A DNA stretch of 64,000 nucleotides. Source: Raillietiella orientalis (lineage: Eukaryota). The notes under the pieces were generated by a model. The model was not told where the DNA came from. It saw nothing but the letters and a program-made list of their open reading frames with translations, and searched no databases. The DNA is taken from NCBI GenBank assembly GCA_036172245.1, contig JAYWIR010000019.1, forward strand, positions 2,666,001-2,730,000, written 5' to 3'. This document shows, piece after piece, positions 13,950-47,051 of the stretch. The position numbers were made by a program, and so were the translations under genes. Positions within the stretch are counted from its first letter, which is position 1. Every line of letters begins with the position of its first letter.

Positions 13950-15008
13950 TGGGGGGGTTCGGGAAGAAATCACCGAGTACTGGAGGGTGTCCTCTGCATC
14001 CTTGTAAGGATGCCGGCGAGTCCCTGTTTCACGACTCCCAGCTGGGGTCATTTTGACGCTATCCTAATGAAGAGGACATCTCAAAATAGATGGCGTCCCT
14101 GTCGTCTTGGCCTCTGGGGTTGTTCCATGTAGTCACGGTCCCGCAGCTCAGGCAGCAAAGTGCTGCAAGGGATGAGGCCGGCGTGAGGACGTCACCCTGC
14201 ACGAGGAGCTTCAAAATGCTTCTAGCTTTGCCGCCGGGGGTTCCAAGGATCACAGCAAAGCGTCCCCAAAGGAGCTGGAGGGCAAAACAGTCCACTAGGT
14301 CCATTCTTAGTGCAAGAGGGAGGAATTCCCGCTCCCCGCGCCTTGAACACTTTGAGTCCACATATACCCCTTGTCCAATGAAGCCGGCGGGCATTGCACG
14401 GGAGATTCAGTGCAGCAGCATCAGCCTCTTACCACTTTGAGGGGAGGGTGCGGGTGTTCATGAGCACCAAGGGTGGCACTGGTGGAAACCGAATGCTCCT
14501 GGATGCCCCCGTTGGCCTGGCCAAGATCGGAAGTCAGCCCACCGGGGCACTTCCAGGAATGAAGGAGCCCTTTGGGGTTCCCGTCCGGATGTGAAACTGG
14601 AGTCATACCATGCAGCTGCTGGTTGATACCCCCTTCGGGGGGTTGCCTCTCCAGAGTGTAAGAAGCACGCCGCTCCCTTCGGGAGAACGCCCTTTAGAGA
14701 AAATTGGGAAGCGTCTCTTCGGCGTTCTCTTCAGAGAGGAAACAAGGAGCGGTTTCCTTGCGGGTTCCCTTCGTAGAAGAAACGAGGAGTCGCCTCATCC
14801 GGGGAACTCCTCTGGAGAGAATAAGGAAGAAGGAGATCCCTTCGGGGTTCCCTTGGGAGACAACCAGGGCGAGGGTTCCCTTCGCGGCTCCCATACCAAG
14901 CGTAAGAGGAACAGACTCCTTCCCCCGGAGCCTTCCTGAATTCATAGAGAGGTCCCTCCGGGGTCATCCCCTAACTTGAAGAGTTACACACACACCCTGG
15001 GATGGTGT
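13950..15008 (-). mobile_element. Interspersed repeat copy 1: probable non-LTR element 5'UTR plus ORF1
   Basis: Clear nucleotide similarity (reverse complement) to 34601-35700 and 45669-46400, e.g. TGTAACTCT...GGGACC...CAGGAAGG...GTTCCTCTTACGC...GGAACCCTC. ORF1-like 'KRLMLLH.ISRAMP' and a CxxC motif. Confidence 0.6.
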
Positions 15009-19940: not shown

Positions 19941-19958
19941 TTTATTCGGCTATTTATT
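19941..19958 (-). terminator. Candidate polyadenylation signals of the SPAG17-like gene
   Basis: Two minus-strand AATAAA (TTTATT at 19941-46 and 19953-58), about 100 nt past the predicted stop, in otherwise GC-rich DNA. Confidence 0.6.
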
Positions 19959-20057: not shown

Positions 20058-23000
20058 TCACGTGCCTGGCGTGGAGTCTTCCAGGCGGATGGTGGACGGA
20101 TCCATGCTGGAAAAGTCAGAGTAGGTCAGCGCGTCCGGTGTTGAGGCCGACGTGACTCACCTCACGTGGACGGGCACGTGCAGGACGCCCAGCTCCGTGT
20201 GGATCTGCAGCCCGTGATCCATAGAGTTTCCCCTTGGGACGTCAATAGACCCGCCGTCCAGCCTGACCTCGACCTTGCAGATGCATCCGGGGGGCACCTG
20301 GAAAGGAGGAGAAAAGGTGAAAAAAAAAAAAAATGACAGAGGGAGTAGCTGCCATTCCTCTTTCTTCCCTTCTCTCACAGCTGCTTCCCTCCCTCCCTCC
20401 CGCCGCCACGTCCTGGTTTCCACGGCTCCTTGGAGGAGGCGAAGATGGGAATTGTTCCATTCACCATCCACCATCCCCGCTCATTCTCACCGCAGACTGG
20501 CGGCACACCGCCTGCAGCCCCGTCCAAGTCGAGGGCGTGGACACTCGCAGGTGGACCGTTTCGTTCGTCGCGTTCTCCACGACCAGCGTGTTCACGTAGC
20601 GCCTACGTAGGTCCACGGAGAAAAAGTCGATCCTCTTCGGCCGGACCGTCAGTGGCACGCTAGGGGCGACGGGGCGCCTCTGGAAAGACAGCCGGAAGGA
20701 GGACAGCCTCCAAGCGCGGTTCGCTTTTCTCCTCCCCCCTCCTCCTTCTCCCCTGTAACCCTTCTTGCGCGCTCGCGCGAATGAGGTTGACCTTTCGGCG
20801 CCAGCGCTCCGTCGGGTCTCTTCCGAACTGGTCCGCACGGGCTCTCTCCTCGACGGAGCTGAGAGGTGCCTTTTGCAGACTCTTCGTCGCAAGAGCCTGC
20901 AAGAGGTTGTGCGTCGGGTGCCGCTGCCTTCTTGCGGGAGAGTCGCGAGCTTCCAAAGACGCCCTCCCGTGTTCCAGTGAACCAGCTGCTCGCCACGCTG
21001 CTGCCCCGTGGGCAGGGTGGTGGACTCTCCGACTCTGGCGGAACGGTTCGTAGAGGCGCTCTGCCGCCGGCGCGTCCTTCGCCCGTTTCCCGCAACACCA
21101 GCGGCAGAGGCGCCGGAGCGCGCCGCTCCTCCCGTTTGTATCCAATCGAGCTCGCGCTCAGCATCCTCCCCCGCGTCCTCCCTCGGATGTTTTCATCTCC
21201 CTCCTCCCGCAGCGCCGGCGCTGCCGCTCGCCTGCCTCGAAGTCCCGCAGCCCGATTCTTGCAGAGCCAGAGTCAGCTGGACTGAGTTGGACCTATCCGG
21301 AAAGGGAGAGGCGCGGAAAGCACAGGGTCGCTTCCGCTACCGTTCAGGAAAGTCCTATTGCCAGCAACCCTGCCGTTTTTCCGTCCGGAACTCCCTCGTC
21401 TCTAGGCGTCAACTGCAGACGCGCGCGCGCGCGTGCTCAAGGAGGAGAGAGGGAGCAGGAGGAGAGAGAGGAGGGGAAGAGGAAGGGTGGAAGAGGAATG
21501 GAGAAAGAGGAGGAATGGAAGAAGAAGAAGGGAGGGAGGAGGAGGAGGAGGGATAGGAAAAATGGAGGAGGGAGGGGGGAAGAAAAAGGAAAGGAGGAAT
21601 AAGGGAGGAGGAGGAGGAATAAGGGAAGAGAAAAAAAGGAGAAGACGAGGAAGAGAAGAGGAAAGGAGAGAGAGAGGAAAAGAGGAGAAAGAGGAAGAAA
21701 GGAGAGAGGAGGAGGAAGGGTGGAAGAGGGATGGAGGAAGAAGAACAAGGGAGGAGGAGGAGGGGAAGCGAGGAAGAAAGGGAGGAGAAAAAGGAGGACA
21801 ATCGTTCCGGCGAATCTCACTTACGAACTCTAGCCTTTTGGCGAGAGCGGGATTTGCTGCTCTGGAAAGGTCTTGTATCTTGTGCAGGAGATGCAGCATC
21901 TTGTCCTGAAGAGAAGTGTTGGGAACGTCCTTGAAAACAGAGAGAAAAGAAAAGGGTAAGGGAAGGGAAGTAGATAAAACGCGAGGGACGGGAGAAATCT
22001 TGGAATTCAAGGACCCGTTCCCGGGCGCCGGGAGAAGAAGGGACTGCCCGACGGGCGACTGATGCCACCTCTTTCCGCAGACCTCCTTTTGCCTGCGGGC
22101 GGACCTCGGCGCAGCACCAGGGTCTCCGTGGGAGTAGACCGTCGCGACTCTTTGAGACTCGGGCTGCATCCGCACGCGTCCCGCGTCAGGGGCACTCGCC
22201 TCCAGCACGTGCAGACGCCCCATGGTCCGCGGGCAGCGGTAGATCCTTCCTCTTCCCGCGCCTCAGCGGGAATGCGGGCACAAGGCCTCTCTCCCGACGG
22301 CGTGCCCTCGGGAACGCCTCCCTTTCTGCAGGGACGGACCTTCCCCGGAGGAGGAACCCGGAGCGCCTCTCTGCAGGAGGCCGGAGGTGGAAAGGAGGTG
22401 AAGGGGAAGCCGGGGAAGGTCGCACCGGCGTCCCGATCGCGTCGGCGGATTCCGGTCCCTGCCAAAGAGATCCTGGCGTTCGGTCGGCGTTCGGGTTCTC
22501 CCGGGGCGCGTCCCACGTGTCGCCCCCCGAAGCGCGAGTGTGGCTGCCTAGCGGGCGGCTGGCAGCACTGTTTTTGCTATTCTGGTCCCGATGCTACCTT
22601 CCAGGATGTCAGGGCTGTTGCGGGCGCATTCGCCGGAGAGCCTCACAGCTTGCCCAGCAGCGCTGTTCCAGGCATACTGGGATCGCAGCTTCCTGAGGCT
22701 GCCTACCGGGCGTTCGGAGCCACCACCCAGAGCACCTTAGGAACGGCGAGCCCGTCGGGGTCGCCCGAGGGCCGCTGCTCTTGGAGGGTTCCCAGGGAAG
22801 CTCTCGCCGTTGCCTTCCCGGAGTCACCCTGCGGGGGCTGGTCGACGTTGTCCGCCCTCTTCACCTTTCGTTCGTTCTCCGGCTTCTTGGGAGTGGCAGT
22901 AGGAGTTTAAGGAAGGAAAATTTTTGCAGGATCTTCTCCCCTCCTTCCCCTTTCATGTCCCAGACTGATGCCCAATACGGGTTCCACCAGCATCAAATGA

Positions 23001-26000
23001 GAGGAGAGGGAGGAGAGGAAAGGAGGAATCCGTGGCTTGCACCTACGGATTACCTCCCCACTCATGTCTGCGGCTGCGGAGGGAGCGGCCAAGTCGCCTG
23101 AGGGCTTCACGGGGTCTCTCGTTCCTGACTGTTCGCTGACCAGAGGATGAGGAGGCGGCGGAAGGGAAGTGTGGGGGGCGAGGAGGTGCTGCCCTGCGCC
23201 GATACCGCGCGAGGTGGTGCGGTGCCGGGAGGGATGGTGGGACCGACCTCCGTTCTTCCGGCGAAGCCGCTGTCGCCGCTCCGTCCCACGTTGCCGTCCT
23301 TTGCCTGCGGCAGGGGCGCCCCGGCCGGTCCCGGCTTTCCGTCGAGGAGCTTGGCCGCGACATGGGGCTCGTCGGGGGTGTGTGGGTCATCTCGAAGGTC
23401 GGCGGCCTCCTGAATGCAGACGTCTTCGGCGTCGTCGCCGTCCTCTCGTTTTTCTGGTTCCTCCTGCAAGTGGCAGCGCGGCAGCATGAAGGGCGGGCGG
23501 GCGGAGATCAGGGGAAGGGAGGAGGGAGGGAAAGGGACGTCGAGGGGGAAATCACCTCTTCGTGCGTTCCCTGCGCAGTCGGCAACTCACCGACCACCCG
23601 GCCTGAAGCGTCAGTCTCCCCTTCCGGCGTCCCAAGAACCTTCGAAAGAGAAATGGGGAATGGTGATTTGACCAGTTCCGAGAGGTAAGGAGAAGGAGGG
23701 AGGACACCCGAGGGAGACACCCTGCTTCCATCTTCCCGGAATCTGCGCTTCTGGGACGCGCGAGGATCGACTCTCCCAGGGGTTTAATCCCTTCACCCCA
23801 ACCCTCGCCGGGCGTGCGGAATCCCCCGGAGGGAGGAATCATCCCGCGGCATACCCGCCCCGTGGGACGGAAGCGGGCGAGCAGCGCTTCGTCGTCAGGG
23901 AGACCTCGGGAAGGAAGGTTCAGGCGCACTCTCCGCTGCTCACGGGAGGGAGTGGGTGGGGAAGAGGAGCGAACCGGCGGACTTCCAACCGTGTGCTTCC
24001 GTCGGGAAATGCAGATCCAAGGTCAGCAAACGGGTGACTTACAAGGAACAAGAAAAAGGAAAAGAAGGAGAAGGAAGAAGAGAAGGAAGAGAAGGAGGAG
24101 AAAGGAAGCGCAAGGGAGGAGGAGGAAAGGAAGGGGAGAAGGAGAAAAAGAAGAAACGAGTCCTCCAGGAGACACCTCACGTGATTCGTTCCGAGGAGCA
24201 GAGACGAAAAGTCACGCAAGGTGGCAGGATGTGGGTTTTCTACGCATGCAGATCGATTTCCGTGCTCACGCCTACTTCTTCACAAAAAGCCATGTGGAGA
24301 TGTGCTTATCATTGCTTTGTGGAGCCATGGGCTCATCATTCTTGGAATGATGGTGATGGCTCATTTATGATGGTGAAAGAAGCTACGTGGAAGGTTTGTC
24401 TCGGTGGCACAGGAGAACCAGAAGAGGGGGATGGGGTTTCGTCCGCTTGGGATCTGCACGGGGCCGTGCCCCTGCTTGCGATGGTGCCGCCGCGCGCCGC
24501 TGAATGCGAGGGGTCAGCCACACCACCAGAAGAGAGGAGGAAGGATGTCGGTTCTTCTTCCCATCCCTGGAGCGTTGGCTTAGCTTGGGCAAGGCCGGTT
24601 CTCCAAGCCCTCCCTCTCGACCTTGCGTGCGCCCGCAGCCCCCCGAGTAGGCACTCGATCGACGGAGATGCCGCTTCGAGCGGATCTGCTCCCGCAGCTG
24701 CTGCTTCCGAGACGCCACTCGCACCACTTCCATTGAAACTCCCAGTCCTGATGCGAACGCGCAGCAGCAGCAGCTCACCTCGTCGTCCGTTTCGTCTTCT
24801 CCGCAGGGTAAGTCCATCGCGGCGGCCATCTTCACGTTGAACTCGACCAGAACCTTCTCCATCTGGGTGCGCAACGCATCGCTCAGAGACCTCCACTTCA
24901 AGAACTGCCTTATGTGGAAGGAGGTGGGGGAGCGTTCTTGGAGGGCGGGAGGCGGAGGGAGAGGCCAACCGCCGCCGTTCTTCCCAGCGTAGATCCAGCG
25001 CGCGAGTTTCTTCACGTAGGACTGAGGGTGCAGATCGCGGCATGGCGGCCGGGGCTCCCTCGTCCTCGCCCCGGAGCTCGCCAGGAGCCCGACGCTCGTC
25101 TGGAATGCCGGGGGCCTAGGGAAAGTCCACCTCCCGTGCTCCTCCGGGTCGGAGATGGGCGTCACCACCGAGAGCCTCCGGGGAACCGACTTTGGCGACA
25201 GCGGGTCCTCCACCGCTTCGGTTCCGCGGTCGCTCTCCAGGTGGCGGCGCACCTCACGCTCCACCTCGCTCCCGTCCAGAAGCTGCACGACGCAGCGTCG
25301 GGCCGAGTTCAGCACGAGGAAACGCGGCTTGTGTACGGGGCACGCGGTCCACTCCCCTGCGTGGGTGCCTTCAAGAACTTTTTCCAGGAACGTCCTTTGG
25401 TCCTCGTCGAAGAGCGTCTGTGCGCCTGCATCCGCCACGCAGAGCGCGTCCGTCACCTGAACGATCTCATCCTTGAAGGGGGGCAGGGAGGCGTTCCGGG
25501 ACGCGCTTTCCTGGAGAATGGGAGGAAAGGGTTCTCCTCGTTTCTTTGCGCCGTTTTCCCCTTCATCCTCGTCCCCGCTTCGAAGGACAGACTCTGACAG
25601 GAAGATGTCGGACGTGCCGTCCTCGTTGATTCGGAAGGAGTTGCCTGGAAACCGCAACAACGGAAATGGTTGACAACTGGACAGCTCGCGATTTTCATTC
25701 CCTTGAATCGCACCGTCTCTCTTCCCTGAAGGGGCGAGGCTGAGAGGAGTAGGGGACGGCCGATTGATGGCAGCCCCACCAGCGACCTGAGCAGTCAAAC
25801 ACTCCTCTGGGCGCTTTTTTGATTTTGACGCTTCCCGCGGCGCAGGAAGAGAGAGACTCCTTCCCACTGCCCGTGGGCGAGACTGAGGACGGCTCACTTC
25901 CGCAAGCGGTCCGGAGTCGCTGGCGATCTATCCGGGACTGCCCTCAGCATCTTCGGCTTGAGAAAGGAAGGAGGCGGCGGATGCGCATAGGTGATCGCCC

Positions 26001-29000
26001 TGCGTGTTGCTACACGCCTTCTTTCTCCTCCCTCTCCTGTTGCGGCATAGGGAGATGGCGAGAGTCGCCGGCTCGCAGACCGTGGGTATCCGGGGTCCTC
26101 CCGCCCACCCGCCGTAGCAAGCACCTCTCCAATCTCCTGCACGGGAAGAGGGCATGGTGGTGGGACGCATTCTCAGCCACCGCTGCCTGTCGTCCAACCG
26201 TCATCCACGTGACCCGGGTCGTTTGAGGGCTACCTTGGAACGTCGAAATTTGGAGACATTCCATCGGCCCATCCGTTCCGGGAACAGAGTGGCCACCAAC
26301 CGACACCGGGACGGTGCTCTAGGGCGAGGAGGAGGCGGGGGAGTCAGACGGGGGGCCAGGGAATGAAAACAGGAAGAGGAAGGGAGGAAGAGAACGAAGG
26401 GAGAAGGAGGAGGAAAAGAGGAGGAAGAGAAAGGAAGAAAGGGTGAAGAAAAGGAAGGGAGCAAGAAGAAGAGAGGAGGGAGGGAGAAGGAGGAAGAGGA
26501 AGAGAAGGAAGGAAAGGGGGAGGAGAGGAAAGAAAGTCGCATGGCAGCAACGCAGCTCTGGACGTTCGAGTGCGCCCCATCTCTTCCAGGATGCTGCCCC
26601 TCTCAAAGGTCCGACGTTCCCGGGATGTGCAGGGCGAGCGACGTTGGACCGGCCCGCCTCTTCGGCTTCGTGGCGCGTGCGTGGGGGGGACCGCCATAGC
26701 AGCTTGCGAGAGGCGCCCTCTAAAAATGCGGCGCGTTGGGGAGAAGCGGGAGAGGCGGCGGGAAAAATGGCGGGGAGTGTCCCCCTTCCCTGAGTCTATC
26801 CTCATTCGCCAGTTCCTCATTCCCACCCTTCTCTGCCCTTGCTCGACAAGGACGCAAACGGCGCAGCTTCTCGCGCCGTGCTGGACATCTACCTTTCCCG
26901 TCCTTGACGACGCACTGCGCGTGTTCCGCCCTCAAGTCGAAGGAGGCCTCGGAGGACGCGTCTTCCTCGCGTCTGGAGCGGCAGGTGAACGTGTTGAGGT
27001 CCGTTTGGAAGAGGCACCCGTCCAGGGCTATCTCGCAGCCCACATCGCCCTCGGCTTTCACCGTGATGCCCTGGAATCGCAAGGTGGCCTCAGGGACGCT
27101 CCCGTAGAGGTGCAGCTCTGGGAAGCAACGGGGGTCGGTGGTGGCTCGGAGGGACCCCTCCGGAGAGGTAGCGCCTGCGTAGGCAAAAGAAGGGAGCCGT
27201 CAGCGGCCAGAGGTGCAACAAATAGACGGGTGCTTGGCAGTTCGTCGTTTTTTTTTTTTTGCATCTCGAGAGGGGAGGAGGAAGGGAATGGAAGGTTTCC
27301 CAGTTCCGCCTCGCCTCCTTAGCTCACCCTACCCCTATCGGGATGCCGACCGACAGGAGAAAGATCGTTTCTTCGCTGCAAGGACCCGGACGCGGCTGCT
27401 GGTGCATCAGCTTCCAGCTGGGTGGCTGGCGGAGGCGGCTCAAGAAGGGAAGAGAAGCAGGTCAGTGCAGGTCGCTCAGCCCGAGAGGGGATGCGACCTT
27501 GCCCGACGGCGATGATGAGGCTGCCTAGTGCACCATTGGCGCTTCCGCCCACCAATCCGAAGGGTCGCGTCTCCCCTTCGCAGGCGCGGGCGTCTCGCGC
27601 TGCTTCCGCATGGGCGCGCTCCTACCTGAGGCAGTCTGACCTCGAACGCGTGACCCTCGTCGAGGATGGCCACGGTGGCGTACGACTCGTGCTCGAACAC
27701 GATCGACTGTGTGCATCTGTGGCAGGCTCCTCCCGTTGGACGGTCCAGGAATTCGAAGTGACGGTTCTCTTCCTCCCCCTTCTCTTCCGCTCCGTCAACC
27801 TCTCCTCCGGGGACGCCGCCACGTGGCTCTGTGCGTCGCCGCACCTCTGCAGCGAGAGAAAGCGTCAGGCGAGCTGGAGGGAGAGAGAGGGAGGAAATAG
27901 CTTGCAGAGCGGCAGCGTGGAGAGAGGGATCCCGATGGCCGGTGGTGGCGTCGACATCCCTCTCCGCTCCTGGGCGCATCGACTGCCCGGGGATGATTCC
28001 CGTCCGGCCGTAGGTGGGACTGGTGGTCAGGGGAAGGAGCGGCGTTGCCCACCTTGCATAAGGCCATCCACTGTCCCGGAGGAGTCTGGTCCTGAGATGC
28101 CCACGGGCCAGGAGGTGCAGCGCAGACGAGGGGTGAACTGGGTGACCAGGGAGTTGTCCTGCAGCACCTGCTCCACCCCATCTTCTCTGTACAGGAACAC
28201 CTGACGGGAGGGAAAGGAAGGGGAAAGCTCCTTCCTGAGGACGAAGCGCTTCCCGGAATCGCCTCCGACTGCCTCGAGCCAGAGGTCGGGCGGAACGCCG
28301 GTTTCTTTCCTTCCCTTTCATACCTTTTCGGTGGCGAAGTCCACGGCGGAGTTAATCCACATCCGGGGTAGCTCCCACCTTTTTCCCGCCTCCAGGAGGA
28401 ACCTGGAGCCGTCGTGAGTCGTGACGTCGTAGGCGAGCGGGGGCGGGGAGACCCCTGCCTCGGTCTGCCCGGATATCCCTTCGTTCCTGTTGCGCGCCGT
28501 GTCCTTCGCCTGGAGGGTGGCTCCCGGCCCTCCCCTCCCTGAGACCTCCTTCTCCCCTTCCTCTGCCCTACGGCAGAAGCGGCGACGGTGGCGGTGGCGA
28601 GTGGGAAGCAAGAAGGGAAGGGGGAAAAGAAGGCAGGTGCACGCGTGGGCTGGGGGGAGGAGGAAAATGGAGGCGTCCACACTCACGTGGCAAGAGGCGG
28701 CCCGCAGGCCCCCGCGGGTCTGCAGGCAGTGACGTCACCCAGAGGGGAGTAGACGACCATCTGTCCATCACTGTCGATCTGGATGCATTTCCCATTGGGT
28801 AAAAAATACATGCGCGGCTTCTCCTCTTCCTCTTCCCGGCCTACTTGCCGGGTGCTGCTGCCACCGGCGCCGCTACCTGCGCACCGCCGAGGAGAGGGTG
28901 CGGTGGTGCGTGTTGCGCTCGCTGCCTACCCGTGAGCTCCCCCACGTGGAACTGCCGCACGAAGAGTCCCTGGCGGCAGAGCCTGAGGTCCCTGGCGAGC

Positions 29001-32000
29001 TGCACGACCAGCCCTGAGGGCAGAGTGACCGCCAGCTGCCAGTCCCGTGGGTCAGTGCTTCCCCCCTTGCCGGCCTCGTCCCGGGAGAGCGAGGAGTCGT
29101 GCTGCTGCCTCCTCTTGCCGTCCTTTCTGCTGCTCCTCCCCCCTCCCCTGGGGGACGAGGGGGAGGAAGGCGAAGGAGGTGGTCGCGGCCGGGAGGACCG
29201 GGGCCGCTTGGGGTCCGGCTCTTCGACGGCGAAGGGGCGGGCGTCCCCCCTGGAGAGGCTCGCCCGGGCCCCATTCCTCAGCTCGAGCGAGAGGAATAGC
29301 CGGGGGGTCAAGGTAGGGGCTTTTTTCTCCGTGTCTGGAAGCAGGGGCAGGGGCCCTTCCTCCTCTCCCTCCTTGGCCGCGTTCCCCGCGGACTGCTGGA
29401 GGGAGACGAGGTTGCCATCCTTCTGGTAGAGGATGGCCGCGACCACCCTGCCCGCGGAGTCGGTGACCCGCCCGTAGCGCAGGTGGCTCCCGTCCTGCGG
29501 GAACTCGCTTAGCTCTCGGCCGCGGAAGTGGAGGATGCGGCCGCCCACGTCGAAGCCGTGGAGCTGACGGAGAAAAGGGTTGGCAGAGGAGGAAGAAGAG
29601 GACCTACCTTTCGGGCTGCATTTCCCTTTCCCCATGCGCCCGGAACAGCGGCTGCTCCTGCTGCTGCCGGACCGTGGTCTTCCACGCTTGCCTGCGCCTT
29701 CTGGAGCGATGACTTGACGCCTCTCTGGGTTGCCTTGGTTTCCAAAGGGAACGGCGAGAAGAGCAGGGTGTGCCGCTGTCAGTGGAAGCTGCACGCGGCT
29801 GCCGCTTCGCCCGCGCTCTCTCGCCGGAGGGCGGGGTGGCCCCACCCAAGTACGCCGAGAGAAAAGGGCAGGGGAGGGGGGGAAGCGCTGTCCGAGTGGA
29901 GGTGAGGAAAGAGGGGGTGGGGTGGATGGGAGGTGAAACGCGCAGGCGCCTCTCGAACTGGTCGACACGCGGTCCGCGCCGGTCTGGCACGTCCACTGCC
30001 CTCACGGCAGAGCTGCGAGGAGCAGGAAGGGGAAGGGGTGAAAGAGAAGTCCGCTGAGCGCGCCCGGGCAGCCTTCCCTGGATACGTGCACCCACACCTT
30101 TGCGGGGGTCTCTCTCGGCGTGGGGAGGCACTCGCGCCGTCTCGACTGCGAGTGATCTCCTTGGGACCCATGCGGCTTCCAAGCTTGGCATCTCCTTGCG
30201 AGTGGCTCCCTTGCCATCAGGACTGGCGTGGGGGAGGCTGCAGGCCTATCTCCGGACAGTTTCGCGGCCGGGATCCGGGACGCGTGCGTCCCGCTCGCTC
30301 CTTCTCGTGGAGTTGCGCACTCCCGTCTTTCCTTCTTCCTTTTTTCCGACCCAGAATCTCCCCTCCGATGCCTGCTCAGGGACCCGAGCGCCCCCTTTCT
30401 GCTCGTGACCTCGGTGTCCGTCCGTCCCCCTGGCCATCTCTAGCTGACAACCGGGCGCCATCGCTCCTTTTGCGCACGGGGTCATCGTCATCGATCCGCT
30501 CACCATTCCTCAGCAGGCCCGACGACCACGCTTGACGTCCGGCACAGTGCGTGTAACCCTTCCTCCTCCACCTCACGCCCACGTCGCCCCGAATCCTCCA
30601 GGGTGCAGCTCGGAGAGAGTGCGGGCAATCCCTCTTCTTCCCTCTCCTCGGAGTGGGCGGGCTCGGGACACGCGCACGCAGGGGCGAGCGCCAAGGAAAC
30701 CGGAAGCGCGCGCACGTCCCGTCCGGGCGCGGAATCAACACTGGACATGGATGGGGTGCGCACCCCTTCAAGCTCCCATGGACCGGCCCAGAGGCCGATT
30801 TTTGCCGTTTTTCTTTTTCTTCTGTCTTCGTTCTTACTCGGGGCGTGCTCCTTCCAGGTCACCCCCTTCTTCAGCGCTTCAGGGCGACCATCAGGAGGAA
30901 TTCAGCGCATCTTCGCCATCGTCGTGATCTCCAAAGTGATAGTCATCTTCATCTTCATCGTCAGTGCAATCATCGTCATTGTCGTCATCGCCATCATCAT
31001 CATCGTCAGCGTCGTCAGCGTCCCTGCCATCGTAATGATTACCGTCATCGTCGTGGTTACTAAAGCGATCGTCGACGTCGTCATCGTCGTTGCAATCATC
31101 GTCAGCGTTCATTATCGGCATCGTCAGCATCAGCTTCGTATCATCATCATCATCACCGCCACTATCACTATCTTCATGATCGTTATCATCGTCACCCTCC
31201 GTCATCTTGGCAGCCATCCCACTGAGTGAGACTCGAAAGGCCGCCGCCGTAAAGGGGGACTGGGGTGAAATTCCCTGGTGCGCCGCCGGAACTTCCAGAG
31301 AGCGGAGGTCGTCCACCGTGGATGCTCCACCGCATCCGTGCGGCAAGAGGTTGCGCTCGCGTTCCGAAAGACTGCGCCCGCCGTCTGGCGCCCGTTCCCG
31401 CCATCCTCTTCCTCCCTTCTTCCCTCTCTGGAGTGCGCGCGCTTCCCGACTTGGATCGCACGTTTCAGCAGCGGACGCGTTGCCACTTCTCCCGCCTCAG
31501 TCATTCCAGGAATCCGCGGAATCTCGCGCGACACGCTCCCTCCGTTCTCCTTTCCCCTTGGCACCCCGCCGATTTCCCATCTTTGGGTCTTCCAGGTCAG
31601 GGCGTCCGAGTCAGAGTCGTGGGATAAATACATCTCCTGCACCACTTGGCAGAGGCACCTTGGCACCGAGCCCAGAGGGAGGGTCGGGAGGGAATCCAGA
31701 GCGCCTCCCCAGCCGGGAAGCTTCCCCGCTTGTTGCTAAGCTCTTGTTTGCTCTCGGTCCGAGGGACGCGCGCGTGCGAGCCTTGCCTGTCCAAAGTGGG
31801 TAAGGGGGTGGGGGTAAGAGTGAGGGGAACCGCCCTGCCTGTATGCCTGCGGAGGGACCCGCGTATGCGCCTGACCTCGCTGACCTTGCCCGGCGTCCTC
31901 TTGCTGTGGGTCTCGACGCCGCCCGGATCCTCCTCAGCTGCTTGCGCGCCGTCGGCCGCCCAGGGAAGGCTCTCCTCTTTCAGCTTGTGTTTGATGGAGC

Positions 32001-38000: not shown

Positions 38001-41000
38001 TCCTACCACACACGTCCGGGTTACATTGCGCGCGTCGGTCAAGGGTCGGCCACCTCCTCTGAAGGCTCTCTCAACGGAATTCTTTGCTTCCCTGCATTTG
38101 GGGTTCTCTTCTTCCCGCGCTGCAAGGAAGAGGGAGAGGGGGATGCGTTCTTTGTCGGCCGGCGTCGCGACGGCTGCTCGACCTCCCGCGGAGGAGCCGC
38201 GTGAGCCGGCGCGATTTACCCGACGTGGAAGCACTAGGCGAGACCACCTAGGCGGAAAAGCACACTGGCCTCGTGCCTGCCTAGGTGGTCTCCGGGAGCA
38301 CCTCGCTGCCCGACTACGCCCAGGTGTCCTCCCGTGCATCCTGAATTCGAGCATCACACCGTCACTCCGGACCAAATTGCTCCTTCCCTTTGGATACCCG
38401 GAGGAATCTCTATCGAAGGGATCGTTCCTTGTTCGCTCCTCTAGAGGGAACTCTGGGGGAGGTGCTTCCCATTTTCTCCGATGGGCTTGCCCGAAGGAAG
38501 CAGCACGCTTCTAGGACTGCTCCAGGGAGGAGCTGACTTCACGAGCGCAATCGGTTCCGTGACATGAACCGGAAGGGAATCTTGGAGCTCCGCAACTCCT
38601 GGAGGGACCCCGGAACCCGGAAAGTGTTTCTGATTCCAGCCAGTCAACGGGGGCAGCCGGTCTCCGGCAAGAGTACGCCATTCCTGGTGCCTCACCCGAA
38701 GCCCGCGAGCCAATCAGCGTCCTGCGGATGGGCTCGAACCCTCGACGCATGGTGCTGCGCGCAGAAGCCGCAGCCAACACAGGGCCGGCCGCCATGCGGT
38801 TGGACCGCAGCCGCGAAGGCCGTGGAAGCTTTCGGTCGGACCTACACTGTGGAATGTGGAATATCAGGAGGAGGGGGAAGGGGGAAGAATGGGATAACGG
38901 CGCTGTTCCTTGCACCTATCAGTTGCCCTATGGGTCTTCCCTCTCCCTCTCTCTTCATCCTCGGAATGCCCCAGGGAAGCAGCGACCTCGAAAGACAAGG
39001 AAGAGAGTGAGTCCGGAAGGACGATTTCGCGCGTTGCCACTGCCCATGCTGCTCGCTGTCTTGGACGCGCTGCGTGGAGCTCCACGGCTGGAGAAGGGAG
39101 AAGCGTCCTGGCATGGAAATTTCTCAAGAGGGGCGGTGTACAGAGTCGTCCTTCGGGACTCTCTCTTCCCCTCCTTCAAGGTCTTCCTTTCAAGGTAGCC
39201 GGTGGCGGACCCCTCAGTCGCGGAAGCAGCTCGTTGCCGCACGCGCTGCCCACCTGTTCGGTCAAAGCGTGCAGCACCAGGGCTACGTCGTCGCGTTCCA
39301 GGGGTATCCTGGACATGAGCATCCTGTAGACGTCCAGAGGATGGAGGTTGGGTTCCTTTCTGCCGGCGTCCTTCCCTTCCACGAACACCTAGCAAGAACA
39401 ACATGGACACCGGCGTCCACCGTCAGTAGTGGCCACCTGCCGGCCGCAGCTGCGGATCGGCCAGCAAGGTCGGTGTTTTTTTCGAACGTCCCCGCAGGGT
39501 AGAACTCCCAGCTGGAGGAAGCGGATCGGAGAGGGACGCCGCCCCGCAACCGACAGAGGTCGTGTTCCGGTGAAAAGCCGGTCCTGCCAGCACCTGCCAA
39601 CCCCTTCGGCGTGGGGATCGAAGCATGTCGGTACGCAAGAGCAGCAGTTCAGGAGGTCGGAAATGCGTGCAGAAACGTTGCCGCGTCTCCTCCGCGACTC
39701 GGTATGATTTCACCTTCTGGCAACTAGGCGACGGTGGTCTCCAACTGCTGTTTCCATTTGTTCCCGACTCTTTCGTGGCAACGTAGGAACTTCCTTCCTC
39801 ATGCTGATCGAAGCGCCTCGAGCTTTCGCGGTCATTGGCATAGGTAGAGTCAGGGAAAGAAGCGCCGAAGAATGGCTGGCGAAAGGCACCATTCTTCAGC
39901 GAATGAGAGGCGGGGAGGGAAGCGACTCTCTTCGGCCGTTCCTGGGAAATCTTCCTCCTCCAGGAAGCCTATTCACGCGGTCTGAAGTTCACTCCCTCAC
40001 GCGCCGTGCAGGTGGGAAAAACGAAGAGAGTCCCTGTCGTATCAAGAAGGGGCAAACCACAAGCGGTCGCTCGGAAACGGCGGAGGGCGCAATGCCGCGG
40101 GGTGAGATAATCGTACGCTTGGGATGAGTCCGTGGAGCTGGACAGAGATAATTCGGCTGGAGTTCGAGAGGAGCCCGGAAGAGATTATAGCCCAAGGGAG
40201 GTTGCCGTGAGCTTCCTTGCGACAGGCGGGAAAAGGAGGAAGAGGAGGCAGCGCATCGGGCGGCTGTCACTGGGAAGAGGAGGAGCTTCGGCCACCTGCA
40301 TCCTGAACCCCACGCCGCGGCAGGTTGTCACCGCGTCCCAGGGCGCCGACACGGTGGTCGCGCCACTGATTCCAGAACCCTTCCTCGGCTTCCTGCTGCC
40401 CTTGGCAACCGGCAGCTTCCCTGGGCGTCCGCATCGGGCGCGCGCCGCAAGTGGTCCCTTCAAGCGACGAGGCTCTATTCGTCGCTTGAAGAGCGAGAAG
40501 AGAGATCACGATGGCGTCGGTAACGCCAGCAGCAGCAGTGACTGAGGCGGCACCTTCTTGGCGTTGTGCATCGACAAAAGAGGGTTCGTTGGGTGTGTGT
40601 TAAGACTCCTGCTGCTCCAGAATCGTCCGCGCTGCGCCCGATTCCTTTTCCCTATACGCAGGGATATCGGAACATTCAAGTTGCGGGTTCGAACCGAGAG
40701 GCACACATGCACCCCAGTGGGGTCTCGGACCTACTAGGCTCGCCTCCGAACCCAGCTCTTCACTTTCCGTGCGCGTCCTGACCTCAAGACCCGTGAAGCG
40801 CGTTGACCTGGCTCGCAATCTGCAAAGCGAAAGCTGCTGAGAGCAGGAAGCGATTCGCGGCTGCGCGCCAAAATGCGCCATCGTGCTGCTCACTGCGCGC
40901 ATGCGCTACGGTACATAGGATACTCTTCTCTCCTCCCATCCCTCGCCCACACGGGCGCGAAAAGTCGCTGCGAGGGCGAAAATTCCTCAAAAAAAAAAAA

Positions 41001-44000
41001 GTTTTTGGTTGCCTTCGTGATCCTGAGGGCGTCCAGGTAATCCAGGTAGTTTTTCTTGAAGGCGTGCATCCTGGAGATGAGGTCCAGGAATTTTTCGAGC
41101 AGGTTCCGGGTTTCACCGGCACCGCCGCTCCCCGCCGTAGCGGCACCGCCACGTCCGGCGGATCCTTGCCAAGGCAGCTCTGCAAACGTAAGGGCATGGA
41201 GACTGTCCTGAGGAGAAGCTGAAGCTCCGCCCCACGGGTTGCCTCAAATTCTCGCGGCCCGGTGGGTCCTCCTGGACCCGGACGAAGCGGGACCGAATTC
41301 CGAACGGAGGCCGCAGCAGGAAGGACGCCGAGGACGCGGCGCACAAGCTGGAAGACGGTCCTCCCTCCCTTCTTTCGCGTCCTTTCCCTGAGTGGGAGGC
41401 CAGCCCAGAGGAGCGAACGTTTGCTTCTGACCCACCTGCGACACGGAGAGGAATGCCTACCAAGGCCCTTTCCCCAGGGAGAGAAAGGAAGAGAAAACCA
41501 ACAAAGCTCCAGAGGAAGACGAAACCTCGCGAAGATGGTCCAGAATGCGGGATGGCGCAGCAGCCGAGAGCGAGGCATCCCCGGGGTGGCGTTACCTTTG
41601 CTGAACTCGTCGTCCAGCAGCTTCTTGGCAGGAGAGACGAGGAACTGCTCTCCCGGCAACGCGCGATGCGATGGGACGGGAGGGTGGTACAGCGACAGTA
41701 GAAGGGTCGTCCTGAGGACGTTCCGGTGAGATAGCGGCTCGAGGAAGCTCTGCAGCCTCTGCGTCTCTTTGGAGGGTTTGAGTGGCCACCTGGAACGGCG
41801 AGGGTGGTGCTGGTGCCCTCGAGGCGAACAGACCGCGGGGCGGCGCCAAGTGTGCCTCCCGTTTCGCCGCCCTTGAGGGACGACGGCGCTGCTGCTCCAG
41901 CACCACGCGACGGGACGCGCCCACCCGCCTCCCTTGCCATCCGAACTCCCGAAATCCGCGCACTCCTGTGCCGGGACGGGTATCCCGTGACACGCAGCGC
42001 ACCTCCCGGGTGGCTCGCCAAGAAGCAGACTGCGGCCCCGGGAACGCGCACGGGGTTCTCCCACGTGGGCACGCGCAGAGGGTCGACGGGAGCGCATCGC
42101 ACTCCAGGTCCGGGAACGCCCTCTTTGAGGACTCCCTAGACTTGAGATCCCTTCCTTCCTCTCCTTGTCCTGTCGACGAAGGTGATCCGGGACGCGGTAG
42201 ACTCAGCGCTGGTTCACATTTCGCGGAGAAGCTACTCTGAAGCTGTCAGGACCCCTCTGGACGGATCATCGCGTGAAAGGAAGATAGGAGTGGGGGGTGG
42301 AATTTTCCACTCCCCACTCCTATCTTCGGCGTAGGCGCGCCGCCGCGACATCGAAGGCGCCCGAGGGATCCCTTTATCTTGTCCCAGTTGCCATGGAAGA
42401 GGCTGCAGGGCCTTTGCACCCCTGGTGAGGCGTCATCTTCCTCCTTCCTCCGATTTCGCGGGAAGCAGCCTCCCTCCCTTCCAACTGTTTCCTTGGCATC
42501 CTCAGCAGAAGGGCGACTTCTAGTTAGTTCTTTCGGTGCTGGGGGGTCGGGTGTGCTCAGAAGGCTCAGGGGCCGTTCCCCTGGAGCCCTCGCAGCGGTA
42601 TCCGCTGCCTCCGTCGGAAGGAATCTGTGCCGGACGGAAGCAACTCCGCTTGTTGGCACCATCCAGGGGAAGCTGCAGTCCTCCTCCTCCGACAGAACGC
42701 CGGAAACAATCTGGACCTCCCACACCCCTGGCCTCGGCTGTGACGACGGCTCTCTGCTGTCTTTGGCAACAGGCGCCTCTCTCGGGATCCTATGGGCTTT
42801 GGCATCGGGCGCGCGCCGCAAGCGGTCGTCATTGACCATTCGGACGGACGGTCATTTCGAAGCCAGAGTGGTCTCGACCTTGCGCTTTACCGGATTCGAC
42901 CCCACCCTTTCCCTCGACCCGCCTCAGGCGCAAGGGTTCTCCTCTCTCTGAGGGAGCGTCAGCTCCCGCCTTCCGGCGGGCACCGCACTCGCTCGCATCT
43001 CCGAAAGTTTCCTCCAGGTTTGTCGGTGCAAAGATGGATGACGAAGACGGGAACCCTGAGATGAAGCGGAATTTGGCGACCGAGAAACAGCGCAAAGCAA
43101 CCCCAGAATACGTCAGGATCCACGTCCTCGTCCCAGGCACCCGGGTGGACCCGAACGGAGGGGCTGTCTGGTAGTGACGGAGGGAGGGAAAGAAAAGGGA
43201 AAGTCCGAAAGCGAGTCCTGCGTCTTCCTCCTCTACACTCCCTCCTTTCCTCATCAAAGAAAGGGAAGAGAGGTCGGGGAGAAAAAAGATACATCCTCAG
43301 CTTCCGCGCAGGCGTTTCAATCTCCCCCTCCCTCTCCCTTTCCCCCTCTCCATATCCTCGTACGTCCGGGAGCGTCCTGGAGAGGCCGTAATCTCGAGAT
43401 GGGACTGATCGCACCATCATCATGGTGAGGGGGCGGGCCCTCTCCTCGCAGCAGCCTCCCCCACCTTATCCCTAGCACTCTGTTGGTCGCCGTGGTTCCA
43501 GAAGATGCTCGGGATAACCAGCGGGAGGCGGAGGGAGGGCACCTGAAGGGCCAGTCGATCGCCTGCCCATCGCTATCCCTCGCAAGGGGACGAGGGCGGG
43601 CTGGGTTTTCCTGGTGGACTCGAGGTCGCGGCCATCCAGTCCGGTCAGCCGCCAGCCCGCCGCGCGACGGGACCCAGACGCCCCCCTCTGACTTACCGTG
43701 CGGCCGCTGCCAGTTCCGGAGACTTCCGAGAACTCGGAGCCACAGCGGCGTCCGGCAGCACCGCGCGGCCGTCCGACGCGGCGTGGACGGTGAGAGCTAT
43801 GGGCGCCACGGCGGCCGCCAGACTTTCGGTCCAGCAGTCGGGGTCGCTTTCCAACAGGATGAAGGCGTCTATCCCAAGGGAGATCCTGGGAAACTCTCCG
43901 ATAAAGTCCAGGGATTCAAAGGACATCAGCACCACCAGTGCGTCGAGGCACCCCGTCTTCTCGCCTACGGAAATCGCGGTTATGGAACCTCCCCCTACCC

Positions 44001-47000
44001 CCATCCTTGTCCCCATCCCGAGACTACCGATGGAATCGGGAAGTGCCAGGTCTCCCCGCCTCGTCATGTACTTGGAAAGGCGGGAGTTCGAGGGCGGATG
44101 TCCGACCTCCTGTTCTCCCTCCTTCGCCTTGCGAGGTTTTCCCTTCTTCCCCTCTCTCCGGTCCTCCTTGTCCTGAGGAGCAGCCTTGCCGCGGGCTGCT
44201 GCCGCGGCATCTTCGTCTTCCCACGTGACCTTCGCAAGAGGAAGGAGATGATAACGGGAGGAGGAGGAGGAGGAAGAGGCAGCGAGAGAGAGGGGGACAA
44301 AGAAGCCCCACCGCCGCCGCCTCCACAGGAGGTCGTCCTCTCACCCGGGTCCCCGTTTTCTCCAGTTTGCTCCTCGTCTTCAAGGAGTGCAGGAGCAGTT
44401 TCACTAGCCGGGCGGTAATCGGGGGAGGGAGGGGCTCCCTCGCGTCTAGCAGGAGCTTGGCCACCGACAGCGTCTGCGCTCCCACTGAGTCCTCTCCGAC
44501 CTTCCCCAGCTTGGGCGCTGCGGAAGTCATCCTCCTCACGAACTAAAAGGCACGGTTTCCGAGGCAGAGGGGGGACCGTGCGGCATCCCGACCCTCGGTA
44601 CACAAGAAAGAAGCCGCACGAGAGGAGCGCGCGCCAGCGCAAGGCAGAGTCTATCGGGCGCACGGCAGCTTCGCCGCAGGCCCGGACGGCGGCCTGCCGA
44701 AGATCCGCCTTCCGGGTCCGCCCAAGAGTGCGGGTCTTCATACGTCCCTCCCTATTCTTCCCTGATGCTGCGGTGATGGACTGGCGGTGAACTCCTCCTT
44801 CCTCTCACCGCCGCCGTCCGACCTTCCGCAGCAATCAATGAAGTCATCCCGAACACTTCTACTGCCTCCATCGAAACCTCCCCCGCCCGCCCTCATGCGT
44901 GCCTCAGGATTCTTAGACTCGTGCAGCGGCCATCCCCTGCTTGGAAGAGAAGCTCCTGCCTACCGTTTACCCTCCTTCCTTCCTCCTTTACCTCCTGGCG
45001 GGGAACTTCCCTCCCTAGCAGCTGCTTCTTCCGCTTCTGCCTCTTCCGATTCCCTGTCCTAGGGATCGCTCCCTTCTCCCTCCCTCCCTCTTTTCATCTC
45101 CGCAAGTGAGTGGCAAATGCCGTCTGGGCGCTCCTAGTCTGCTTCATTGGTCCAGCGTTCCGAGGAGCGACTCGGCGCCCAGAGGAACGGCGGATCCTTG
45201 GGCGAGTCGAACCACGCGGCCTTCACCCGGGAACAAGAAAGACGGGGCCAAGCCGCGGAGGCTCTGGCGGCTCGCTACCTGGACATGCTGTCCGGCCACG
45301 CGCGCCCGAGGCGGCTGCCGTGGCCGCGGGTCGGGTCGCGAGGCGACCCACTGGTTCCCCGCTCATCCGTCTTCCCATCATCTGACGTCGGAAACCGAGC
45401 ATCCATTCTTCGAGTGCACACGTGACTTTTGCACGCGCGTGACGATCCCACGCGTGCGACACGCGTGACTTCACGCGCACGCGTGCAAATACGCAAACTG
45501 CTTCCGCATTTCGAAGCTCCGGGTACTCCGTGGTGGCGTATGCCCCTTGGTTAAACACGAAGAAGAACCCAGAGGGACAGCTTTTGAAGGAAGGGGGGTG
45601 GTTCGCCAAGTGCTGAAGAACCATTCGCTTCATTAGAAGAGGTCATTGGGCTCTTTCATCAGTCTAATCCACCCCGTGGGTGCCTTGTAACTCTTCACGT
45701 TAGGGGGTAACCCCAGAGGGACCTCCCTATGCGTTCAGGAAGGCTCTGAGGAGAGGAGTCCGTTCCTCTTACGCTTGATATGGGAGTCCCGAAGGGAACC
45801 CTCTTCCTGGTTGTCTCCAAAGGGATCCTCTTCTTTTTCTCTCCAGAGGGTTCCCTCGGATGAGGTGACTCCTCGTTTCTTCTACGAAGGGAACCCGCAA
45901 GGGAAGCGCCGCTCCTTGTCTTCTCCTTCGAAGGACGCTCCCCGAAGGGAGCAGCGCTCTTCTTCACCCTCTAGAGATACAACTCTGAGATGAGGTGACT
46001 CTAGAGATACAATCCCCTTAGGGGTGTGTGAACCAGCTCCATGGTAAGGCGATGGAGGGTCCCCCCTCAAAGGGAAGGATAGCCCGATTTTCACCAACGG
46101 AGGGGGACAATCCCGAAAGGCTCCTTGATTCCCGGAAGAACCCCGGAGAGTCGATTTCCACCACTGCAGCACCCGAAGCCCGTGGGGCCAACCAGCGCCA
46201 TCTTGCGGGGGGAACTCGGGACCCACGACGCACCCTCCTTTCTCGGCGTCGATCCTCCACGTGATTTTCGAACCCGCGACGCCAGGTGCCGCGCCTTGCA
46301 GGGGAGACCGAGGCTACGCGCCTGCTTGGGCGGGGTGGCCGTTCCGTGCATCGAGGGAAAGTGTGGCTCGAAGCGTGGCTCAAAGACCCACGAGACATGA
46401 GTCCTTTCCCTCAGACTCCGTCCTTAAGGCGGAAGCGGGTAGTGGAGCGAGAGTGCCCGAACAACCTCCTCCTCCCACCCGTTCCCTTCCCGATTGTCCA
46501 GTGCCACGAGGGCCGGGAACAGGGAGGGCTGATTTCGCTTGCGCCCGCAGGGACTCGCATCCTCCACGGCCTGTGCATGGGACCCGCAGCCTATGCGCAG
46601 GCGCAAATTCGACTCGACTGACGCCCTCCGCGCTGCAGCGGCACCACTGCAGAGTGGACTTTCGCACCACCCATGAGGGTGGACGACGCTTCCGCGAGAA
46701 CACGTGGCGTTCAGCCGGAGGAAAGAGAGAACGGCGGAAGATCAACGAGGGAGCCAGTCCTACTGCTTTGACGTGCTCCAGTGTGAGGACGAGGATGTTC
46801 TGTTCCCTTTCGTTTATCTGCAGCTCCAGGGCTTGGGCTTGCGGTAAGTGGCCTGGATCGGTTTCGCTTGCGTTGACGACGTAAACGATGCTGTATTTCC
46901 AGTCCCCCTGTGAAACAACGGTTCCCTGTTGTGGCCTTCCCTGGATTCCGCGAAAACCACTCACCGAACCCAGATCGATCTGGTCTATCCCGTCCTCTAT

Positions 47001-47051
47001 CTGCGACGCCGTCTTCCCATCTTTTCCTTTGTCTTTTTTCCTCCCCTTCAT
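20058..47051 (-). CDS. SPAG17: Sperm-associated antigen 17 (PF6)-like axonemal central-pair protein; ~27 kb, probably more than 25 exons
   Basis: Collinear exon peptides match recalled SPAG17 motifs. ATG 47051; exons 47051-46965, 46907-46764 (GDWKYSIVYVV), 44542-44345 (AKLLLDAREPLPPPITARLVKLLL), 44229-44028, 43964-43697, ~41.1 kb (FLDLISRMHAFKKNYLDYLDAL), ~39.3 kb (VYRMLMSRIPLERDDVALVLHALTEQ), ~33.6 kb-33337 (YDLEEWRYSESF), 33289-33115 (LLSLQNPVN...WEGRILSEVTFREFL), ~29.5 kb (HGFDVGGRILHFRG..FPQDG), ~28.2 kb (YREDGVEQV), ~25.6-24.8 kb (HKPRFLVL...IRQFLKWRSLSDALR). C-terminal PapD/ASH-like exons 20679-20491, 20297-20161 (HGLQIHTELGVLHVPV), 20106-20058 (TGA). Some internal exons are unresolved. 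Confidence 0.85.
21437..21800 (+). repeat. Degenerate (GGA/GAA) polypurine tract in a SPAG17 intron
   Basis: About 360 nt almost purely A/G on +. Confidence 0.95.
24045..24155 (+). repeat. Polypurine tract (intronic)
   Basis: A/G-rich low-complexity run. Confidence 0.9.
26363..26535 (+). repeat. Polypurine tract (intronic)
   Basis: A/G-rich low-complexity run. Confidence 0.9.
30905..31207 (+). repeat. Degenerate (CAT/CGT)n trinucleotide microsatellite
   Basis: CATCGTCATCATC... over about 300 nt. Confidence 0.95.
34601..35700 (+). mobile_element. Interspersed repeat copy 2 (non-LTR 5'UTR plus ORF1), in a SPAG17 intron and antisense to the gene
   Basis: Homologous to copies 1 and 3. 'RLSRVVLLNAFWRIPDASDERLLG' resembles the Tx1 ORF1 RRM motif (RVxxxNVPxxIPDExI); 'ETGT' and 'RPPRC' follow. 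Confidence 0.65.
37195..37530 (+). repeat. Degenerate (GAT/GGT)n trinucleotide microsatellite
   Basis: GATGATGGTGATG... over about 330 nt. Confidence 0.95.
37563..37905 (+). repeat. Imperfect ~80-bp direct repeat (two copies)
   Basis: TGTTGAGCACAGAGC..TTCCCAGCGCGCTCTTCAG..GCTCATT..GGCTGCA..CCTTCCG.CCACC at ~37573 and ~37827. Confidence 0.85.
45669..46400 (+). mobile_element. Interspersed repeat copy 3 (non-LTR 5' end), in SPAG17 intron 2
   Basis: Similar to copy 1 (e.g. GATGAGG.GACTCCTCGTTTCTTCTACGAAGGGAACCCGCAAGG) and copy 2 (CGACGCACCC.CC.TTCTCGGCGTCG.TCCTCCACGTG). Confidence 0.75.

Follow-up and report, generated by a model that had tools for sequence, protein, structure and literature searches.

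The 64-kb window analysed here, which lies on contig JAYWIR010000019.1 of an assembly of 210.5 Mb in 491 contigs, carries a large gene on its minus strand (positions 20157-47051). With a probability of roughly 0.6, we read it as an intact, single-copy, fast-evolving orthologue of SPAG17/PF6 that serves a 9+2 axoneme, likeliest in the sperm of a non-insect pancrustacean. The preferred gene model comprises 30 exons, 6,279 nucleotides (nt) and 2,092 amino acids (aa) in one frame, whose sole stop is terminal. It was assembled by hand from the genomic sequence, read on the minus strand, and is predicted rather than transcript-based. The initial annotation of this DNA had claimed more than 15 minus-strand exons of a highly diverged SPAG17/PF6 gene, and this count is exceeded both in the preferred model and in a longer variant of 32 exons and 2,182 aa.

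The locus is a real protein-coding gene. In a leave-one-out test with a periodic Markov model, the proposed frame outscored the other five in 30 of 32 exons, and the two that failed are the same two that were later dropped from the model. An independent codon model, which is cruder and was trained only on eight stretches of the same genome that matched HYDIN, DLEC1, CFAP74 or a dynein, also placed the proposed frame best of six in 24 of the 30 exons (ca. 5 of 30 expected by chance); its reverse control recovered six of the eight training stretches. Among stop-free intron segments of 150 nt, 6.5% scored above zero (n = 418), and this control is lenient because these introns also trained the background. 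The G+C content (GC) at third codon positions (GC3) of the exons was 0.77, against 0.61 for the GC of the introns. The well-supported exons are free of stops and frameshifts, even those as long as 866 and 634 nt, and the genome contains no second copy of exon 14. As far as can be judged from the genomic sequence, the gene is probably intact, with an apparently uninterrupted frame and usable splice sites.

The gene probably belongs to the SPAG17/PF6 family. Exon 8 (39254-39388, aa 421-465) gave as its best match among 177,635 PDB sequences residues 507-539 of Chlamydomonas PF6, with 17 of 33 residues identical, an expect value (E) of 0.096 and a conditional E of 2e-06. The motif occupies a comparable place in both proteins (aa 433-465 of 2,092 here, 507-539 of 2,301 in PF6). 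Since the exon was chosen for a presumed resemblance, this match is strong as a test of a prediction named beforehand and weak as a blind find. In a Pfam scan of 23 exon peptides, a PapD-like domain was the one relevant match: exon 29 (20491-20679, aa 1984-2046), which would encode the first half of this domain, matched PF14874 weakly (E = 0.0087; 16.6 bits, below the cut-off of 27), and the PDB matches of this exon were CFAP47 and HYDIN, both at E of about 1. We assume that SPAG17 ends in a single C-terminal ASH domain. Resemblances to what we take to be SPAG17 motifs were seen in many exons in the right order, and these serve as a lead only. The predicted length, also in the longer variant, fits the family size, the PF6 chain having 2,301 aa and PF6/SPAG17 being described as ca. 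250 kDa (PMC7999657).

The intron positions of the gene were compared with those of mammals by numbering from the ATG and not by alignment. The junction between exon 4 (44028-44229, aa 144-210) and exon 5 lies in phase 1, directly after Ile210. Mouse SPAG17 exon 5 covers Met149-Ile210, and human exon 6 covers Asp212-Glu276 and ends at c.829 (PMC11949450); from the bounds of human exon 6, the intron before it was computed to lie at c.634/635, in phase 1. By chance, ca. 2% of phase-1 positions would fall as near to one of the model's phase-1 junctions. The same exon starts at codon 144 here against 149 in mouse, which is a looser match (ca. 11% by chance), and the human boundary at c.829 has no counterpart in this gene; thus, one of the three published mammalian boundaries is close, one loose and one unmatched. 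Two single-sequence AlphaFold2 models had mean confidence scores (pLDDT) of 40 and 44 with no fold match, and such models are uninformative.

Several observations weigh against this reading. As a blind match, the E of exon 8 is not significant. PF6 was absent from the results of eight of the nine PDB queries made with exons of this gene (E up to 10), and mouse SPAG17, which is modelled in PDB 9IJJ (PMC12297659), was returned by none of the nine; seven of them gave chance matches only, and short diverged exons sit near the detection limit of such queries. A phmmer search with the largest exon (exon 24) against 1.84 billion representatives gave no match, the ESM Atlas gave no usable match for two exons, with low recognition, and a word-indexed search with exon 8 gave three candidates, none of them at E up to 10. 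Coding scores are weak in exons 9, 10, 17, 19 and 28, and the intron at ca. 41.0 kb has to use a donor that is weak, whether GC or GT. Furthermore, the host may be of the fish-louse/tongue-worm or of the ostracod type. Besides, a metagenome scan with exon 14 gave 599 pattern matches, none of which was confirmed. The interpretation put forward in the initial annotation is supported in part, and its SPAG17/PF6 identity is probable on thin tool evidence: exon 8, the weak ASH-like C-terminus, the size and one intron speak for it, and the PDB queries that lacked PF6 speak against it, while the profile search of the exon peptides yielded nothing relevant beyond its one PapD-like match. These results suggest that the gene is probably an intact, very diverged new member of this known family.

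The genome also encodes other parts of the axoneme, which were scored for presence and not for intactness. A PapD-like profile search of the genome gave three loci, namely HYDIN (E = 2.5e-8 to mouse, 8e-4 to Chlamydomonas), CFAP74 (PF24771, 41.2 bits, above the cut-off) and a probable DLEC1 (PF23316, 25.6 bits, cut-off 27). RSP3 (E = 1e-59), CFAP119, a SPEF1/2-type CH domain and a probable CFAP69 were found as well, and CFAP54 was matched weakly (E = 0.057). Seven Dpy-30-type domains are present, one of which is read as DPY30 itself; the domain of the local DPY30 is interrupted by an intron. The pairing of SPAG17 with DPY30 is textbook knowledge. Dynein heavy chains gave 22 matches at 12 distinct loci, about ten of which would be axonemal if two are cytoplasmic, a count that is not a formal classification. 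Hydin_ADK had no match in a genome that does contain HYDIN, and the domain of the SPAG17-like gene itself escaped the PapD-like search; since these searches missed genes that are present, negatives from searches of this genome are weak. Because HYDIN, CFAP74, CFAP119, RSP3, the probable DLEC1 and 12 dynein heavy-chain loci are present, a motile 9+2 axoneme in the host is likely. With the probable CFAP69 added, the same genes independently support the earlier proposal that the host has retained central-pair machinery, and HYDIN was among the partners that it had named.

The host looks like a non-insect pancrustacean of the fish-louse/tongue-worm or the ostracod type. We put the odds at about one half for an ichthyostracan, one quarter for an ostracod and one quarter for others, an estimate that leans partly on the axoneme genes. 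The neighbouring genes gave limited resolution: ASPG was 45-60% identical to any of the 120 homologues listed, and a gek exon showed 79-85% identity to crustaceans, insects and a scorpion alike. In a tree of 34 gek fragments, the host fell outside insects on a long branch (0.84), in an unsettled position among Daphnia, barnacles, malacostracans and the scorpion; the set contained no myriapod and no named oligostracan, and long branches can misplace. An insect host was rejected on this tree, with its long-branch caveat, and on the failure to find an odorant-binding protein (OBP) or an odorant receptor, which is weak. Genome probes for OBP, odorant receptor, GH9 and a cryptochrome-type FAD domain found none, and these are all weak negatives.

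A 9.2-kb mitochondrial-type contig has the order cox1-L2-(spacer)-cox2-D-atp8-atp6-cox3-G-E-N-F-A-S1-nad3-R-nad5, with the tRNAs read from anticodon arms and from a relaxed ARAGORN run, the latter with many false calls. Since trnL2 after cox1 marks Pancrustacea, the host is placed in that group, and the same position of trnL2 between cox1 and cox2 led us to reject a myriapod or chelicerate host. trnK was not located on this contig; its loss from between cox2 and D is reported for Branchiura, Pentastomida, Cephalocarida, Ostracoda, Copepoda and Cirripedia (PMC1590035, PMC12856591, PMC10999652, PMC4698455). The tRNA cluster of the contig matches none of the tables compared from these same papers. 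The excerpt of PMC13067483 held nothing further on podocopan mitochondrial order, and that of PMC8049415 made no mention of sperm and cilia.

The contig itself could represent either the mitogenome or a nuclear copy of recent origin, and nad3 and atp6 are in split frames. The spacer of ca. 0.5 kb between cox1 and cox2 (contig positions 1745-2310) contains a second, partial trnL2, with anticodons at 1771 and 2285. In cox1 (198-1745), several AGA codons occupy what we presume to be conserved glycine sites, in keeping with either a G-poor bias or a code change. COX1 gave 54 matches on many contigs; nuclear insertions of mitochondrial DNA appear unusually numerous in this assembly.

The alternative that survives best accepts an intact SPAG17 and supposes an ostracod-like host with aflagellate sperm, in which the 9+2 kit is kept for another use. 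This could be a motile cilium that has been overlooked, an axoneme that exists only transiently in spermatids, or a role in spermiogenesis outside the axoneme, like that of mouse SPAG17 at the manchette. To our knowledge, ostracod sperm have no flagellum. The order cox1-L2-cox2-D-atp8 without trnK also fits podocopans (PMC4698455, PMC1590035), the tRNA cluster is unlike the tables of both Armillifer and Argulus (PMC12856591, PMC10999652), and mouse SPAG17 has manchette and trafficking roles (PMC11949450, PMC8812575). A class II photolyase, its class assigned from motifs, is present in the genome and would suit a light-exposed animal better than an endoparasite. On the other hand, a lineage with flagellate sperm would be predicted to have just such a full set of radial-spoke, dynein and central-pair genes. 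The trnS1 anticodon of the contig, TCT, is found in both ichthyostracan tables too, and the GC skew of the contig is -0.62. No GH9 cellulase was found, and an r-opsin pattern gave LINE-like (long interspersed element) or non-coding DNA, without an r-opsin motif, in the 8 of 15 matches inspected, both weak negatives. We regard as unlikely an ostracod that keeps an intact SPAG17, HYDIN, CFAP74, CFAP119, RSP3 and about ten axonemal dyneins. If true, it would be a real puzzle and would point to a motile 9+2 cilium not yet recognised, to an axoneme that spermatids build only transiently, or to wholesale redeployment of the central-pair kit in making aflagellate sperm. Apart from this question, a GC-rich repeat family on several contigs was seen to encode a zinc-knuckle protein resembling LINE ORF1, in which a six-residue word is identical to an opsin motif.

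It is less probable still that the gene is not SPAG17, and that it encodes some other large ciliary protein ending in an ASH domain or that the model joins two adjacent genes. Exon 29 does match CFAP47 and HYDIN rather than SPAG17 or PF6, no homologue was detected by any tool in the stretch between exons 8 and 29, and the 2.1-kb gap around exon 17 is the weakest link in the chain. However, HYDIN, CFAP74 and the probable DLEC1 are found at other loci in the genome, and two features indicate SPAG17, namely the PF6 motif and the mammal-like intron. All exons lie on one strand, have the same codon signature and can be joined in phase, and the total length agrees with PF6/SPAG17 of roughly 250 kDa (PMC7999657).

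The integrity of the gene depends on its splice junctions. Of the 29 introns in the 30-exon model, which range from 44 to 2,324 nt, 28 are GT-AG and one is GC-AG. The initial annotation could not close the frame at ca. 43.6, 41.0 and 39.2 kb; all three junctions close in frame in the present model. The first joins exon 5 to exon 6 (43697/41789, phase 2, GT-AG) and the third joins exon 8 to exon 9 (39254/36929, phase 0, GT-AG). The second (41013/39388, phase 0) uses the GC donor GCAACC at 41012, and a weak GT donor at 40952, with which the frame closes too, gives an all-GT alternative. A U12-like donor at 40923 was discarded, its phase being wrong and the extension scoring -12. GC donors are used in this genome: the neighbouring ASPG gene (minus strand) has a 52-nt GC-AG intron at 55450-55501 with the donor GCAAGA, the removal of which leaves at most one gap in alignments to each of the four homologues tried. 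Since GCAAGA is nearer to the consensus than GCAACC, the 41013/39388 junction is still a prediction. The least certain parts of the model are the junctions 36751/35978 and 27626/27070, and exons 17 and 28. A first parse with 32 exons was dropped because its additional exons, 27438-27333 and 22370-22340, both score negative.

The least probable alternative is a decaying or recently dead SPAG17 whose open frame is an artefact of splice-site choice, in favour of which are the hand-built model, the alternatives or weak sites at the junctions of 41.0, 36.7-36.0, 27.6-27.1 and 21.8-20.8 kb and the strong but unused acceptor at 36089, beyond which all three frames have stops, and against which are the long exons free of stops and frameshifts, the contrast of exon GC3 with intron GC, the frame periodicity upheld by the independent model, the homology-verified GC-AG intron of ASPG and the partner genes in the genome. 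Because the spliced frame of all 30 exons closes, the earlier concern that unavoidable stops or frameshifts could make this a pseudogene is not supported.

The start was placed at the ATG at 47051, as in the initial annotation. Exon 1 (46965-47051, aa 1-29) has a coding score of +9.3 and follows a non-coding upstream frame; an in-frame ATG at 47465 was rejected, as it opens into sequence of non-coding type (-54.5 bits, against +9.8 for exon 1). Exon 2 (46764-46907, aa 30-77) scores +19.3, and the 57-nt in-frame intron before it -8.3. Exon 3 (44345-44542, aa 78-143, +17.4) is without a PDB match over its 3' 46 aa. Beyond exon 4 lie exon 5 (43697-43964, aa 211-299, +18.1), the phase-2 donor of which closes the 43.6-kb junction, exon 6 (41596-41789, aa 300-364, +16.1) and exon 7 (41013-41179, aa 365-420). 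Exon 9 (36751-36929, aa 466-524, +2.7) has a strong acceptor and an uncertain donor, and the acceptor of exon 10 (35884-35978, aa 525-556, +1.3) is uncertain. Exons 11 (34160-34324, aa 557-611, +8.5), 12 (33756-33905, aa 612-661, +11.2) and 13 (33337-33698, aa 662-782, +8.5) are followed by the single-copy exon 14 (33115-33289, aa 783-840, +12.5), which had no match in the PDB, the Atlas or the metagenome scan. Exon 15 (32910-33019, aa 841-877, +4.7) is linker-like, as is the weakly supported exon 17 (29608-29733, aa 923-964, +0.3), the donor of which is strong; exon 16 (31885-32019, aa 878-922, +15.0) lies between them.

In the C-terminal half, exon 18 (28930-29563, aa 965-1175) scores +40.0 and returned nothing relevant from the PDB. 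Exon 19 (28687-28876, aa 1176-1238) may use the acceptor at 28876 or 28840, and is followed by exons 20 (28324-28567, aa 1239-1320, +19.8), 21 (28053-28200, aa 1321-1369, +10.0), 22 (27626-27846, aa 1370-1443, +7.4) and 23 (26893-27070, aa 1444-1502, +20.0). A longer variant of exon 23 starts at 27174; its 5' extension scores +1.3 and needs the extra exon 27438-27333 (-6.1). Exon 24 (24779-25644, aa 1503-1791), the largest with 866 nt, scores +44.9, and homology searches with it came back empty. Exon 25 (23248-23463, aa 1792-1863, +25.2) precedes exon 26 (22736-22885, aa 1864-1913), an alternative donor of which at 22706 requires the 31-nt exon 22370-22340. Exon 27 (21825-21929, aa 1914-1948, +2.6) has a strong acceptor. 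Exon 28 (20792-20896, aa 1949-1983) is weakly supported (-0.7) and is the best phase-compatible candidate in its gap. Exon 30 (20157-20297, aa 2047-2092 and the stop) scores +11.0. At the lower end, the stop and the polyadenylation signals that had been described are present, the latter being two AATAAA motifs within 19941-19958 (at 19958 and 19946), and the last base of the stop codon lies at 20157 and not at 20058. No match to the X-box patterns tried was found in the 1.5 kb upstream of the gene.

The gene lies in a GC-rich block (18 to 48 kb, about 55-67% GC), against 32% at both ends of the window. The window shows sharp compositional domains: gek and VRK have ca. 32% GC and tiny introns, the SPAG17-like gene has ca. 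61%, and ASPG starts lower in GC at its 5' side and becomes richer towards the 3' side. The combined share of Gly, Ala, Arg and Pro is 32.8% of residues in the SPAG17-like protein against 17.7% in pieces of gek, proteins that differ in kind, and Arg/(Arg+Lys) is 0.64 against 0.36. GC-rich surroundings are shared by HYDIN, DLEC1 and CFAP74 (about 48-68%), but GC varies between 35 and 60% among the dynein loci, so no clean rule for ciliary genes emerges. The initial annotation had found the motifs far more diverged than those of the neighbouring genes, and had seen in this a sign of rapid evolution or relaxed constraint. Since gek, ASPG and VRK are enzymes, they are a poor yardstick. SPAG17 is listed among positively selected sperm proteins (PMC8812575), and the similarity between PF6 and SPAG17 resides mainly in one part (PMC7999657). 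With a protein that evolves fast elsewhere and a copy located in a GC-rich island, relaxed constraint is unsupported; the divergence may reflect the normal fast rate of the scaffold together with a long-branched host and the GC-rich island.

The introns carry repeats. A GC-rich dispersed element of ca. 0.8 kb occurs at 45601-46450 (intron 2) and 34606-35283 (intron 10), in copies 72-82% identical, and a third copy (14736-14988) lies upstream in opposite orientation. The larger introns contain long low-complexity tracts, purine-rich or of the (GAT/GGT)n type, at 21440-21790, 24040-24170, 26340-26540, 30900-31220 and 37190-37540.

By analogy with Chlamydomonas and mouse, the product of ca. 2,100 aa would join DPY30 and CFAP119 in building the head of the central-pair projections C1a and C1e. 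The Chlamydomonas complex of PF6, FAP114, FAP119, FAP227 and DPY30 sits at the C1a/C1e tips and faces the radial spokes (PMC9113940), and in mouse sperm SPAG17-DPY30 with CFAP119 forms the C1a and C1e heads (PMC12297659). Since the central pair of insects is confined to sperm flagella (PMC12979858), sperm is the likeliest site of use, and the flagellum would most likely be that of a fish louse or tongue worm. The sperm of Argulus and Raillietiella are flagellate, and the axoneme has been described in Argulus (PMC4294713). What the gene tells of sperm biology depends on the host group; the finding is ordinary if the sperm are flagellate and surprising if they are tailless. It points to a crustacean lineage, so far little sampled, that has the complete programme for a 9+2 axoneme, as expected for fish lice and tongue worms. 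A literature search on arthropods, SPAG17, the central pair and sperm found no arthropod SPAG17 study among the papers listed, most subscription papers being outside its scope. The present model was missed by Pfam, profile-free searches and the ESM Atlas, and since such searches miss this gene, reports that SPAG17 is absent from arthropods may be failures of detection.

Compared with known systems, the gene may share with HYDIN, CFAP47, CFAP74 and DLEC1 an ASH/PapD-like domain, in its last two exons, by weak matches to CFAP47 and HYDIN. Those proteins are chains of ASH domains, whereas here one terminal domain scores, in one of the 23 exon peptides. Mammalian SPAG17 (human NM_206996; mouse in 9IJJ) is of similar size and has one intron at the same codon and phase (Ile210). 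The human gene has more exons, Arg1448 already lying in exon 30 (PMC12960102), while 30 exons make up the whole gene here, and the mammalian protein has further roles in airway cilia and in bone, both without a counterpart in arthropods. Chlamydomonas PF6 (PDB 7N6G chain 4E, 7SQC; 2,301 aa) is similar in length to the 2,092 aa of this protein, and its residues 507-539 resemble exon 8; none of the other exons tested gave a match to it up to an E of 10. PF6 is described as rich in alanine and proline (PMC7999657); in the present protein Gly, Ala, Arg and Pro are abundant, which agrees with its GC-rich island. The partners of the PF6 complex, CFAP119 (FAP114/119) and DPY30 (PMC9113940), are also encoded in this genome.

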